IMG/VR virus record: IMGVR_UViG_3300034072_001378
Coordinates: 35,659 to 99,658 of that record
Direction: 5' to 3' (one strand)
DNA: 64,000 nt
Origin: a virus
Shown here: in pieces, positions 36,829 through 41,573 of the stretch
Position numbering within the stretch: position 1 is the first letter of the stretch
Layout of the letters: each line of letters starts with the position of its first letter
Position numbers and translations under genes: made by a program
Notes under the pieces: model-generated
The model's database searches: none
Seen by the model: the letters and a program-made list of their open reading frames with translations, nothing else
Told to the model about the DNA's origin: nothing

Positions 36829-36995
36829 AATTTAAAATATTTTTTGAACTTAAATTTTTAAGTTAAATTTTTCTTTTAAATTTCTATAATTCTTTATAAT
36901 TAAAATCTATTTTGCATTTGAAATTTAAAATTTATTTTGAACTTAAAAATCTTTTTTAAATTTCAATAATATAAATAATTAAAAAAGGAAAGTGA

Positions 36996-38885: not shown

Positions 38886-40526
38886 ATGAAAAATGAATTG
38901 TTAGCAATTTTTAAAGCAATAACTCCTGATAACATTAAAGATTTACCTTTAATTTCAGATAGTATGGAGATTTTTATAGAACTACTATCTGAAAATTCTT
39001 ATATAAGTTCAGATGTAAAAAGAGCTCTTTCAGAAAGAACAACAGATAGTATTTCAGAGGAATTACCAAAAATATATTTATCTGATTATTATAGTATGAT
39101 AGAAAATTTAAGAACAAATAAAACAGTTGTTAATAAATTTAAAAAATGGAATGATACATTAAAACCAAATTTATATCCAATTGGTATGCCTGTTATTAGT
39201 GATAAGTTATTAATAAACTATTTTATTATAGGCGAAGAGGGTTCTCCTTTAATTGAAGAAGGTTCTGAAGGCGATACTGAATGGAATATAAGCCCACTTT
39301 CAGGTAAGTTGGATGAATTAAGTAAAAATATTTTAAAAAATACACCTGAAAATTACTATATTAATAGAAAATTTAAAGAATCAAAGGGATTAAAAAAATC
39401 AGTTCAATTTATTTATGATATTATTAATGAATATATGGTAAGTCCAGATGAAAGAAAACCGTTGGAATTTAATGAAACAGGTAATCCATTTGAGATAGAA
39501 TTAATCTCTGGATCAATAGATAAAGATCTATATGAAGAATCTGTTGCATATTTGGCACATCCATTAGGATTTACATATAATTATGTTTATAAATCAGAAA
39601 TGAATTTTGTTGATGATTTTTCATTAAGAAATTTTTACGATATAAAAATGCTAGAAGTTAGATGTTTAAATGGGAATATTGAGACTTATAATAAAGATGT
39701 TATTTTTGTGCAAGAAAAAATAAATTATTTAAAAATAATATTTTATGATGGAACTTATTTACTTCAAGAAAATGATGTTGTGAAGTATTTTAATGCAAAT
39801 GATACAATTATAAAATTATATCCACCTGAAAATCATTGTAGTATATATTTAGATTATGAAATAGTTTATGAAACGCGTGTTACAGATAAATTAGTATTTA
39901 AAGAACTTTCAGAACCATTTATTGATAATGTACAAATTTCTGATGATGAATGGTTTAAATATATTTTTAAAATAGATCAAAATAATTTTATTATTGGTTT
40001 TAGTTATATAGGTTCAGGAGATATTTTATCGGATGATTCAGATATATATGAATCAGTTAAAATAAAAGATGAATTTAATTCAGATTTAGAACATTTATTT
40101 ACTGAATCTTATATGGTGTTGGATGATTTAATTTATAGCACAAATATAATAAGTACAGATAATGTTGAAATAAATGAAACATTTAAATCAATAGATGAAG
40201 ATTATGTTCAAGATAATTATACATACAATATATCAGATATTTTAGATAGTTCATCTTTAAATAATATAACTGATGATTTTAATATAAATGATACTTTAAA
40301 TTCTAATTATGCATCTAGTTATACAGATATTAATAGTACAATTATAGATGATATTTTAAGTGCAGAAATAATTGAAGAAACTTCAGAAGATTTTAATATT
40401 ACTGCTTTGGATATATTTTTAGAACCTGAAACAAATAATACATTTATAGAACCAAATCAAAGTTCACCCGAAGAATCATATAACATACAAAATTCAATAG
40501 AAGAATTTAGTATCGAAATTATGTGA
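38886..40526 (+). CDS. baseplate wedge protein (gp7-like)
   Basis: follows gp6; KESKGL..SV..IY and LAHPLGF motifs; stop codon overlaps the adjacent IS remnant end. Confidence 0.55.
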   Translation: MKNELLAIFKAITPDNIKDLPLISDSMEIFIELLSENSYISSDVKRALSERTTDSISEELPKIYLSDYYSMIENLRTNKTVVNKFKKWNDTLKPNLYPIGMPVISDKLLINYFIIGEEGSPLIEEGSEGDTEWNISPLSGKLDELSKNILKNTPENYYINRKFKESKGLKKSVQFIYDIINEYMVSPDERKPLEFNETGNPFEIELISGSIDKDLYEESVAYLAHPLGFTYNYVYKSEMNFVDDFSLRNFYDIKMLEVRCLNGNIETYNKDVIFVQEKINYLKIIFYDGTYLLQENDVVKYFNANDTIIKLYPPENHCSIYLDYEIVYETRVTDKLVFKELSEPFIDNVQISDDEWFKYIFKIDQNNFIIGFSYIGSGDILSDDSDIYESVKIKDEFNSDLEHLFTESYMVLDDLIYSTNIISTDNVEINETFKSIDEDYVQDNYTYNISDILDSSSLNNITDDFNINDTLNSNYASSYTDINSTIIDDILSAEIIEETSEDFNITALDIFLEPETNNTFIEPNQSSPEESYNIQNSIEEFSIEIM

Positions 40527-40885
40527 AATGCTTGTGCTTCATAATTAAAATTTTCTATTGAAAATTAACAAAAGGCTAACCGGGCAGTCCATGCCCTTAG
40601 CTAGAGCTTAAGCTCTAGCTATTATATTAAAACTATTTTTAAGATGATAAGATAATGTAATATTCCAAGCTTAATTAAAAGAAATGAAATGATTGTCTAA
40701 AGTTCAATTTGAGTTTTATTTGGGACAAATTTGTACTTAAAAACTTTATTTATTTTCATTTCTTTAATCTCCTTTTAAAATATTTTTATATAGATTATAA
40801 CATATAAATTAATTTCATATAGAAGAAAAAAGAAAAAGCTAATTCATCTCCTACCTAAAGAAAGGGAGTCTTCTTAGCTTAAAGA
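40524..40885 (-). mobile_element. internally deleted IS200/IS605-family (tnpB) element
   Basis: minus strand: end hairpin agctaagaagactccc..taggagatgaattagct, aggag RBS, MKINKVFKYKFVPNKTQIEL then frameshifted NHF..FN*AWN, jumping to a 24-bp palindrome and gaagcacaagcatttca end. Confidence 0.65.
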
Positions 40886-41009
40886 CTGATAAAAGTCTAA
40901 AAGGAAATTCGCACATTTAGTACTAAACACAAACATTTAAACAAAAATTATTGCATAAAGAAATTTTTTGTTAGTCTAAAATATAAATAATAATAAAAAG
41001 GAAATTGAA

Positions 41010-41573
41010 ATGAAAGATTTATACACAAATAAAGTAAAAGGTCATATAGTAATTGAGTGCTTAGATTCAAATAAAAATGTTATTGATAGATTTGAAAATA
41101 AGAACTTAATTATGGATAGTGCTAGAATTGCGATGTCTGATATTTTATGTGGTTTGGGTACAGCTGAACCAATTGAAAAATTTGTTCTTGGAACAGAAGG
41201 TCATGTTACTGGTGATTATTTAACACCTAAAACAGAATTGGAAGGATTTGTTAGTTCAAGAACACAATTATTTTCAGAAGAATTAAGTTCATATACTTAC
41301 CCAATTGTATTTACAAATCCTGGTGTTGCTATTGGAGCATGCACAATTGTTTCTGAACCAGATAGCGGTACAACTATAAATTTAGATCATACTGGAACTG
41401 ATGTTCAATATATAATTGAAATACCCGAATTGGCGGCAAATAACACAGGTGTTGTTGTTTTTACTGAAGCTGCTTTATATGCTGGAACAAATATATTCAG
41501 TATGAAATGCTTCCCAGGTAAAATTAAAGATAATACTGTTTCTTTAAAAATCACTTGGACTATTAAGTTATAA
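41010..41573 (+). CDS. baseplate/tail-fibre attachment protein
   Basis: KGHIVIE......F.NKNLIM, F.LGT, FTEAALY, K.TW.I pattern; late promoter upstream. Confidence 0.6.
   Translation: MKDLYTNKVKGHIVIECLDSNKNVIDRFENKNLIMDSARIAMSDILCGLGTAEPIEKFVLGTEGHVTGDYLTPKTELEGFVSSRTQLFSEELSSYTYPIVFTNPGVAIGACTIVSEPDSGTTINLDHTGTDVQYIIEIPELAANNTGVVVFTEAALYAGTNIFSMKCFPGKIKDNTVSLKITWTIKL

Follow-up and report, generated by a model that had tools for sequence, protein, structure and literature searches.

What occupies the gap between two neighbouring genes of a T4-like phage, and does the intervening DNA still have a function there? We addressed this question in a 64,000-nucleotide stretch (the window; all positions below are window positions unless stated otherwise) that comprises bases 35659-99658 of the 127-kb IMG/VR contig IMGVR_UViG_3300034072_001378. 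The contig is 68% complete and comes from an uncultured, low-GC T4-like phage, and sequence of the stretch is present in runs from subsurface and wastewater metagenomes. Two plus-strand genes, 38886-40526 and 41010-41573, are separated by a gap of 483 nt (40527-41009). The original prediction placed in this gap a mini IS200/IS605 element that has only the ends of tnpB and supplies the stop-codon region of the upstream gene, and suggested that it could be a kept regulatory RNA or a guide for a TnpB encoded elsewhere.

We conclude that the gap is occupied by what is very probably a dead, non-autonomous derivative of a ~1.56-kb, tnpB-only element of the IS200/IS605 family, similar to the palindrome-associated transposable elements (PATEs). 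We base this conclusion on the anatomy of the element, its homology to intact relatives, an empty site, a pair of motifs at its borders, and the order of its mutations, all of which we observed directly. The remnant is most likely functionless.

An empty allele and a conserved terminus fix the borders of the element

The borders were fixed by an allele that lacks the element. A 4.3-kb contig from wastewater run X6, otherwise 92-98% identical to the window, joins 40520 directly to 40981; 460 nt are skipped, with an ambiguity of 2 nt (AT) in where the junction is drawn. This is the empty-site allele that the original prediction had proposed to look for in relatives. We also collected related viral loci through an alignment of relatives of the downstream protein (single-protein searches with the two upstream genes found no such loci). 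In 30 of these 33 loci, the homologous flanking genes overlap or are separated by no more than ~60 nt, compared to 483 nt here; the larger gaps are in L030, L031, and L033.

The right end of the element is conserved elsewhere. It stops at ...TTCAC in a metagenome contig of the same phage lineage (L098), in another viral contig (L099), and in six bacterial or archaeal genomes, and the flanks beyond CAC are unrelated. Overall, CAC is the terminus of nine independently sampled right ends, whose flanks are unrelated. Because homology fixes the terminus at CAC, the 2-nt AT overlap was assigned to the left end. Together, the terminus and the empty-site contig define the element as 40523-40982, with no target duplication and with a left flank that ends in TTTAT; the insertion point is between AT and ATAAATA. 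The element is therefore real, as predicted, and its left end is ~80 nt longer than in the interval first given (40524-40900). These comparisons mark the insertion as recent and its borders as exact. Below, we refer to TTTAT as the transposon-adjacent motif (TAM) and to TTCAC as the transposon-encoded motif (TEM).

The ends of the element rebuild a stop codon and a promoter box

The empty allele also revealed what the insertion did to the flanking genes. In that allele the upstream gene ends in ...ATT ATA TAA, and in the filled allele it ends in ...ATT ATG TGA. In two related loci (L010 and L011), the TAA is still inside TATAAATA at the homologous position. On the plus strand the TTCAC end of the element reads G TGA, and the upstream protein is altered in its last residue only (Ile to Met). 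As predicted, then, the element supplies the stop-codon region; specifically, it provides the stop and the third base of the codon before it. At the opposite border, the first T of the TATAAATA that precedes gene 41010 is now the last base of the element (40982).

TATAAATA matches the T4 late-promoter consensus, and by analogy with T4 it would act as a late promoter. It occurs 44 times in the window compared to 27.8 expected, and 40 of the 44 occurrences are on the plus strand, the late-gene strand. It is often found ~20-30 nt before the start of an open reading frame (e.g., at 36970, 40982, and 41950), which fits T4-type late promoter use.

Based on these alleles, we propose that the parent element inserted directly 3' of TTTAT on the minus strand, the complement of part of a TATAAATA that overlapped the upstream stop codon, and that the insertion was probably made by a Y1 TnpA acting in trans. 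Insertion would have severed the upstream gene from its TAA. It was presumably tolerated because the ends of the element restored both the stop codon and the promoter box: the terminal TTCAC would have given the upstream gene a new TGA, with only the last residue changed, and the first base of the element would have restored the T of TATAAATA before the downstream gene. The locus is an example of an element that landed harmlessly in an overlap of stop codon and promoter, with its own conserved ends rebuilding both.

The element carries a gutted tnpB with full-length relatives in metagenomes

Intact relatives of the element were found through its right end. Exact-pattern scans of viral contigs with the window sequence returned no match, likely reflecting differences in loop bases and small indels in other copies. 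A pattern in which the outer parts of the terminal hairpin were fixed and the stem was left free matched one viral contig and six genomes. The viral match (L099/L106) contains the C-terminal 88 codons of a tnpB gene and, after them, a right end 89% identical to 40523-40633. Using this TnpB fragment (L106) to search for longer proteins, we recovered the full-length TnpBs P0090-P0094 (409-415 amino acids). P0090 scores for PF12323, PF01385, and PF07282 (HTH_OrfB_IS605, OrfB_IS605/RuvC, and zinc-ribbon), all three of the TnpB Pfam domains.

The stub in the window is closely related to P0090. Codons 1-20 (40759-40700) are identical at 20 of 20 residues, and codons 21-42 (40700-40635) are identical at 21 of 22 beyond the loss of one T; tblastn with P0090 reported 20/20 and 21/25 identities with a joint E value of 2e-17. 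The lost T follows codon 20, and the original frame then ends at a TAG (40699-40697). A nonsense codon, TAA (40673-40671), stands in place of residue 30. The broken N-terminus that had been predicted is present, with 42 codons kept rather than ~45. At 40633, contigs from runs X3, X4, X5, and X6 diverge from the window, on one side or the other, and continue as full-length tnpB. Together with the empty-site allele, these matches bear out the proposed mini IS200/IS605 element, in which both ends survive around a gutted tnpB, and all of the minus-strand features described for it were confirmed. The copy is a derivative of a tnpB-only (IS1341-type) IS200/IS605 element whose protein-coding part is reduced to a stub.

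The X4 contig has the same left end as the window (one mismatch over 40633-40986) fused to full-length tnpB. This rules out the idea that the outer 47 nt of the left end are captured foreign flank. The same contig was also considered as proof of a full-length copy at the window site, and this was rejected: it reaches only 4 nt of flank, all within the TAM.

We considered the possibility that the resemblance is due to chance or that the insert is an assembly artefact, and find this hardly credible. On its own, the stub has only a weak Pfam match (HTH_OrfB_IS605, E = 0.008), and weak nucleotide matches are inflated by the very high AT content of the region. Against this are the exact match of 20 residues and the further 21 of 22 residues shared with real TnpBs, the assembly of the same insert in L098 and in runs X3 and X5, and the conservation of the right end in seven other loci. 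The run contigs, including the one with the empty site, L098, the right-end homologues, and the match to P0090 refute both chance and artefact.

No relative of P0090 above ~35% identity was found in isolated phages, and blastn of the region found no match in isolated phages and one 45-nt chance match in plasmids. Sensitive blastn of the element against ~80 loci yielded AT-rich noise; matches to other TnpB loci were confined to the sequence around the promoter and start. A segment of the left end (40728-40810) shares 73% identity with the sequence preceding the other TnpB of the same genome. Elements of the IS200/IS605 family have subterminal hairpins for the Y1 transposase in their two ends; folding of the left end as DNA gave no significant hairpin (z = -0.27). 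The inner left end (40812-40925) had a depth of 120-470x in the wastewater runs and the outer 47 nt (40936-40982) did not. One X6 contig matches from 40935 onward and has unrelated sequence to the left of 40935. The inner left-end module is seemingly common to more elements than the rest.

The right end resembles the scaffold of an omegaRNA

From the tnpB stop codon to the terminus, the right ends of the window copy, L098, and L099 fold into four hairpins (A-D), and seven bases ending in TTCAC come after hairpin D. Right ends behind intact TnpB genes of Lachnospiraceae, Christensenellaceae, and Lacticaseibacillus have the same order of hairpins and the same terminus. Hairpin A of L099 is shorter (6 bp) and in the same place, and bacterial right ends have a longer insert at the position of hairpin C. 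The 24-bp palindrome, the gggca/tgccc hairpin, and the end that overlaps the TGA of the upstream gene (40524-40526), all described in the original prediction, are present.

Base pairing in these hairpins is conserved. When phage and Firmicute right ends are compared, hairpin B is paired in 100% of cells, and both partners vary in three of its four scored stem pairs. For hairpins B and D in a seven-sequence alignment, 94.7% of cells are paired and both partners vary in five pairs; the observed score was never attained in 500 shuffles, with the outer pairs of D having been fixed by the search pattern. Compensatory changes in the stem of hairpin D are found in contigs from X3, X5, and X6, in L099, and in the six genomes. 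An Rfam search of the region gave sub-threshold chance matches only (P26 and mir-4922).

Because these hairpins are common to right ends behind intact Firmicute TnpB genes, and given the conserved structure, we identify the right end as omegaRNA-scaffold sequence, in agreement with the prediction for the retained 3' part. TnpB systems take their guide from the flank that lies 3' of the right-end terminus. Here the guide would run from 40522 downward and, as had been proposed, would be antisense to the 3'-terminal part of the upstream gene. TTTAT is directly followed by this would-be guide sequence in the empty allele.

Hairpin B, with the same stem, was also seen by eye in a high-GC contig (JAAUXZ010185037.1; L097:3835-3863), inside the 3' end of a TnpB-like open frame. 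Hairpin B can therefore be coding sequence in other TnpB lineages.

The window copy has decayed further than its relatives

Comparison of alleles gave the order of events. L098 is 95% identical to the window over 6 kb and has the same insert, the same frameshift, and the same stop codon. It differs by 14 extra nt at 40535..40536 that complete hairpin D, the subterminal hairpin of the right end and the final stem of the omegaRNA. This hairpin is present in the X5 and X6 contigs, and X3 has a variant with a compensated stem. The 14-nt loss is real because it was assembled independently in run X3. The order of events is insertion, internal deletion, frameshift and stop codon, and then loss of the hairpin. 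We propose that ~1.08 kb of tnpB was deleted some time after insertion, that the 1-nt frameshift and the nonsense codon followed, and that the 14 nt of the terminal right-end hairpin would have been lost last, in this lineage only. One IS605 element can be read from public data in its empty, full-length, internally deleted, and further decayed states.

The full-length family is abundant in the wastewater runs. Short contigs over parts of the element have depths of 60-590x compared to 13-47x for the phage flanks, and contigs of the full-length form are at 5-40 times the phage depth; the deletion junction was found only with this phage lineage. The full-length family is therefore multi-copy in these runs: it is full-length tnpB into which the high-depth contigs (X5 and X6) continue beyond 40633. 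The deleted form showed no sign of amplification. A contig from X3 (depth of 8, compared to 18 for the phage) and a contig from X4 contain a full-length gene with the same right or left end, respectively, and a cognate TnpB therefore exists in the same habitat.

Intact tnpB or tnpA genes with matching ends, which the original prediction had proposed to look for, were found in part. Full-length tnpB relatives are present in the metagenomes and in one other viral contig; none is in the contig of this phage, and no tnpA was found. A search of the 127-kb contig for Y1 TnpA (PF01797) gave no match; a source of this protein in trans is possible, given that the contig is 68% complete. No cognate TnpB was found in the 127-kb contig, and the only other TnpB there is 31% identical to P0090. 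This other TnpB (L005:1501-2448, contig bases 126117-127065, outside the window) is of a different lineage and is cut by the contig end. Its close relatives L043 and L046 are likewise truncated where their contigs stop, and a single related phage has two copies (L044 and L045), which suggests that elements of this type are multi-copy and break assemblies. The right ends of L044 and L045 are unrelated to that of the window element.

A guide or regulatory role is unlikely for the window copy

We think it unlikely that the window copy is kept as a guide or as a regulatory RNA. It is probably now without function, immobile, and without a working guide RNA.

One version of a retained role is that the element homes by means of a guide only. 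The left-end promoter would express the stub and the right end as an omegaRNA with 40522-40503 as guide; a cognate TnpB, encoded by a full-length copy at another site of the phage genome or by a second phage in the same cell, would cut genomes with an empty site (TTTAT and the same flank); and repair by recombination would copy the element in. The geometry is an exact fit, in that the X6 empty allele has TTTAT and then, directly, the would-be guide. PATEs that encode omegaRNAs for a TnpB in trans have been described (PMC10055086), a cognate full-length tnpB is present in the same samples, L098 retains all four right-end hairpins, and the element is better conserved than its upstream flank. However, 14 nt of the hairpin adjoining the guide are lost from the window copy, the tnpB-internal sequence upstream of the last seven codons is all gone, the stub has inactivating mutations, there is no cognate TnpB (and no Y1 TnpA) within the visible 127 kb, and the deletion-junction form is not amplified. 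OmegaRNAs usually begin in tnpB-internal sequence. We consider guide-only homing improbable overall, and where it is possible it is mainly for the intact-hairpin allele L098 and not for the window copy.

A second version, which we regard as less likely still, is that the element was co-opted for regulation: an antisense RNA from the left-end promoter would damp the upstream gene, or the palindrome would serve as a plus-strand terminator that uncouples two late genes. Within 40300-41200, the palindrome and the T-rich stretch after it form the sole terminator-like site (1 compared to 0.1 expected), and there is a minus-strand promoter-like site at 40650-40621 with 10 of 12 matches. In addition, a 17-nt stretch at the 3' end of the upstream gene (40493-40509) is complementary at 15 of 17 positions to 40546-40562 in hairpin C; this inverted repeat may be due to chance, and its coding arm is older than the insertion because it is conserved in L010. 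On the other side, the spacer is dispensable because it is missing from 30 of 33 related loci and from the near-identical X6 phage. The palindrome is inherited right-end sequence (as in L099), promoter-like sites are no commoner than in shuffled sequence (8 compared to 7.0), and the remnant is accumulating deletions.

Several points weigh against our preferred reading, that of a dead remnant. The remnant may still be expressed. A trans-acting TnpB is possible, given that the contig is 68% complete and that full-length cognate tnpB is present in samples of the same study (X3 and X4). A shorter scaffold may be enough for this TnpB subfamily. Between the window and L098, the element is 98.9% identical, the downstream gene 98.0%, and the final 420 nt of the upstream gene 91.9%; recent conversion or constraint could explain why the element is more conserved than the adjacent 3' part of that gene. 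The mosaic pattern of identity between these two alleles could also reflect recombination around the insert.

Taking these points into account, we believe that the remnant itself is a decaying transposon, a real and ordinary member of a well-studied family, with no sign of importance to the phage.

Comparison with known elements

The closest experimentally characterized system is ISGst2 with TnpB2 of Geobacillus stearothermophilus, for which the TAM TTTAT and the TEM TTCAC were established by experiment (Meers et al. 2023, PMC10055086). Like the window element, ISGst2 is a tnpB-only member of the IS605 family that inserts without a scar after TTTAT, ends in TTCAC, and has a right end that encodes the omegaRNA, with the flank as guide (PMC10055086). 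It differs in that the window TnpB is from a different, metagenome-only subfamily and that the host here is a lytic T4-like phage. The same work describes protein-less, PATE-like IS605 derivatives whose omegaRNAs serve TnpB in trans (PMC10055086). Those of G. stearothermophilus have no open reading frame and keep both ends and the omegaRNA region, as does the window copy, which is likewise short and protein-less. In contrast to the PATE family, the window copy is single-copy and not amplified, derives from a traceable internal deletion with a junction found in this phage lineage only, and has its terminal hairpin deleted.

Elements of this type are known from other T4-like phages. The Campylobacter phages CP220 and CPt10, which are T4-like, harbour the IS200/IS605 elements ISCaje1-3 (Timms et al. 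2010, PMC2853527). These elements belong to the same tnpB-only subgroup in T4-like myoviruses, and their location is polymorphic between close phages; they differ in being intact and in the target, which is reported to be ATTTT for ISCaje2 and ISCaje3 (PMC2853527). The right ends from Lachnospiraceae, Christensenellaceae, and Lacticaseibacillus (L102, L103, and L105), compared by right ends, share with the window family the terminal hairpin followed by ...AGTTCAC, the hairpin with the GGGAC loop, and the four-hairpin order. They differ in having 150-165 nt from stop to end, compared to ~100 nt in the phage subfamily.

The free-standing homing endonuclease genes of T-even phages (Seg and Mob; PMC13565253) are, like the window locus, selfish cassettes between conserved late genes that are present or absent among close relatives. 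Genes of this type spread by cutting the empty allele during co-infection (PMC13565253). At the window locus, recognition would instead be RNA-guided (by TnpB), the copy studied has no nuclease gene, and homing is hypothetical.

A second TnpB element is at the same junction in a distant phage

An unrelated TnpB element was found between the homologous genes of a distant phage (L030; IMGVR_UViG_3300024054_000550) whose downstream protein is ~40% identical to that of the window. This locus has an intact TnpB of 423 amino acids on the minus strand (L030:2522-3900) that is 25% identical to P0090. The left flank of the element is TTTAT within TATAAATA, and comparison with the uninterrupted locus L029 places the break after AT (AT/ATAAATA), as in the window. 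The end of this element reads G TCA and not G TGA, and the upstream gene extends ~10 codons into the element.

The TTTAT target is built into the T4-like late-promoter box, and two unrelated elements hit the same junction. We tentatively suggest, as a possibility that is more doubtful than not, that IS605-type elements with a TTTAT TAM use TATAAATA, whose complement contains the TAM, as a landing or homing site. Late-gene junctions of T4-like phages would then be recurrent targets, and insertions would survive when the ends rebuild the stop codon and the box. Full-length elements and guide-only derivatives (of the L098 type) would pass from phage to phage during co-infection, through RNA-guided cleavage of alleles that lack the insert. 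This suggestion arises because two unrelated TnpB elements (25% identical) are at the same junction in the window and L030, and because an empty allele that matches the guide exists. The location of TTTAT within the late-promoter box and the second element at the same junction suggest that TnpB elements may behave in T4-like phages like RNA-guided homing endonucleases. A search of the available literature found no paper linking a TTTAT TAM with the late-promoter box.

Features of the element and neighbouring genes

The features of the element and its borders are listed in Table 1.

Table 1. Window positions of the element, its parts, and the sequences at its borders.
Feature	Position	Strand	Description and basis
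Whole non-autonomous element	40523..40982 (460 nt)	-	Left end, gutted tnpB, and right end; from the empty-site contig and the conserved terminus
TAM, TTTAT	40983..40987	-	Flank directly 5' of the left end; ATAAA on the plus strand; from the sequence and the empty site
Left end	40760..40982	-	Noncoding; AT-rich promoter-like stretch; ribosome-binding site at 40776-40769
TnpB codons 1-42	40635..40759	-	ATG at 40759; tblastn with P0090
Internal-deletion junction	40632..40634	-	~1.08 kb gone (codon 43 to ~403 of 409); run contigs branch at 40633; comparison with P0090 and L106
Last seven TnpB codons and stop	40608..40631	-	Stop TAA at 40610-40608; C-terminal residues as in L106:1576-1842 and P0090-P0093
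Hairpin A	40598..40621	both	Perfect 24-nt palindrome (12+12 nt, 100%); spans the TnpB stop codon
Hairpin B	40582..40596	-	5-bp stem (GGGCA/TGCCC) with a GGGAC-type loop; folds and covariation
Hairpin C	40549..40566	-	7-bp AT stem; predicted in the window, L098, and L099
Site of 14-nt deletion	40535..40536	-	Most of terminal hairpin D gone; comparison with L098
TEM, TTCAC	40523..40527	-	Final five bases of the element; conserved terminus
New last codon ATG and new stop TGA of gene 38886-40526	40521..40526	+	AT from the flank, G from the element
T4-type late-promoter box TATAAATA (putative) before gene 41010-41573	40982..40989	+	Includes the stranded TAA (40984-40986)
Would-be omegaRNA guide	40503..40522	-	Predicted from its place after the TEM; complementary to the final codons of gene 38886-40526

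The upstream gene (38886-40526) encodes a protein of 546 amino acids whose PHROG matches are all unnamed, and a sequence search of the PDB with this protein gave no match. It is directly 3' of a gp6-like baseplate wedge gene, and gene order places it in the baseplate module. The original description of an essential baseplate gene is consistent with this as to the module, and the word essential was not supported. The downstream gene (41010-41573; 187 amino acids) is a member of phrog_5417. Vibrio phage Va1, which is among the nearest isolates, has an identical gene order, with both flanking genes annotated as hypothetical.

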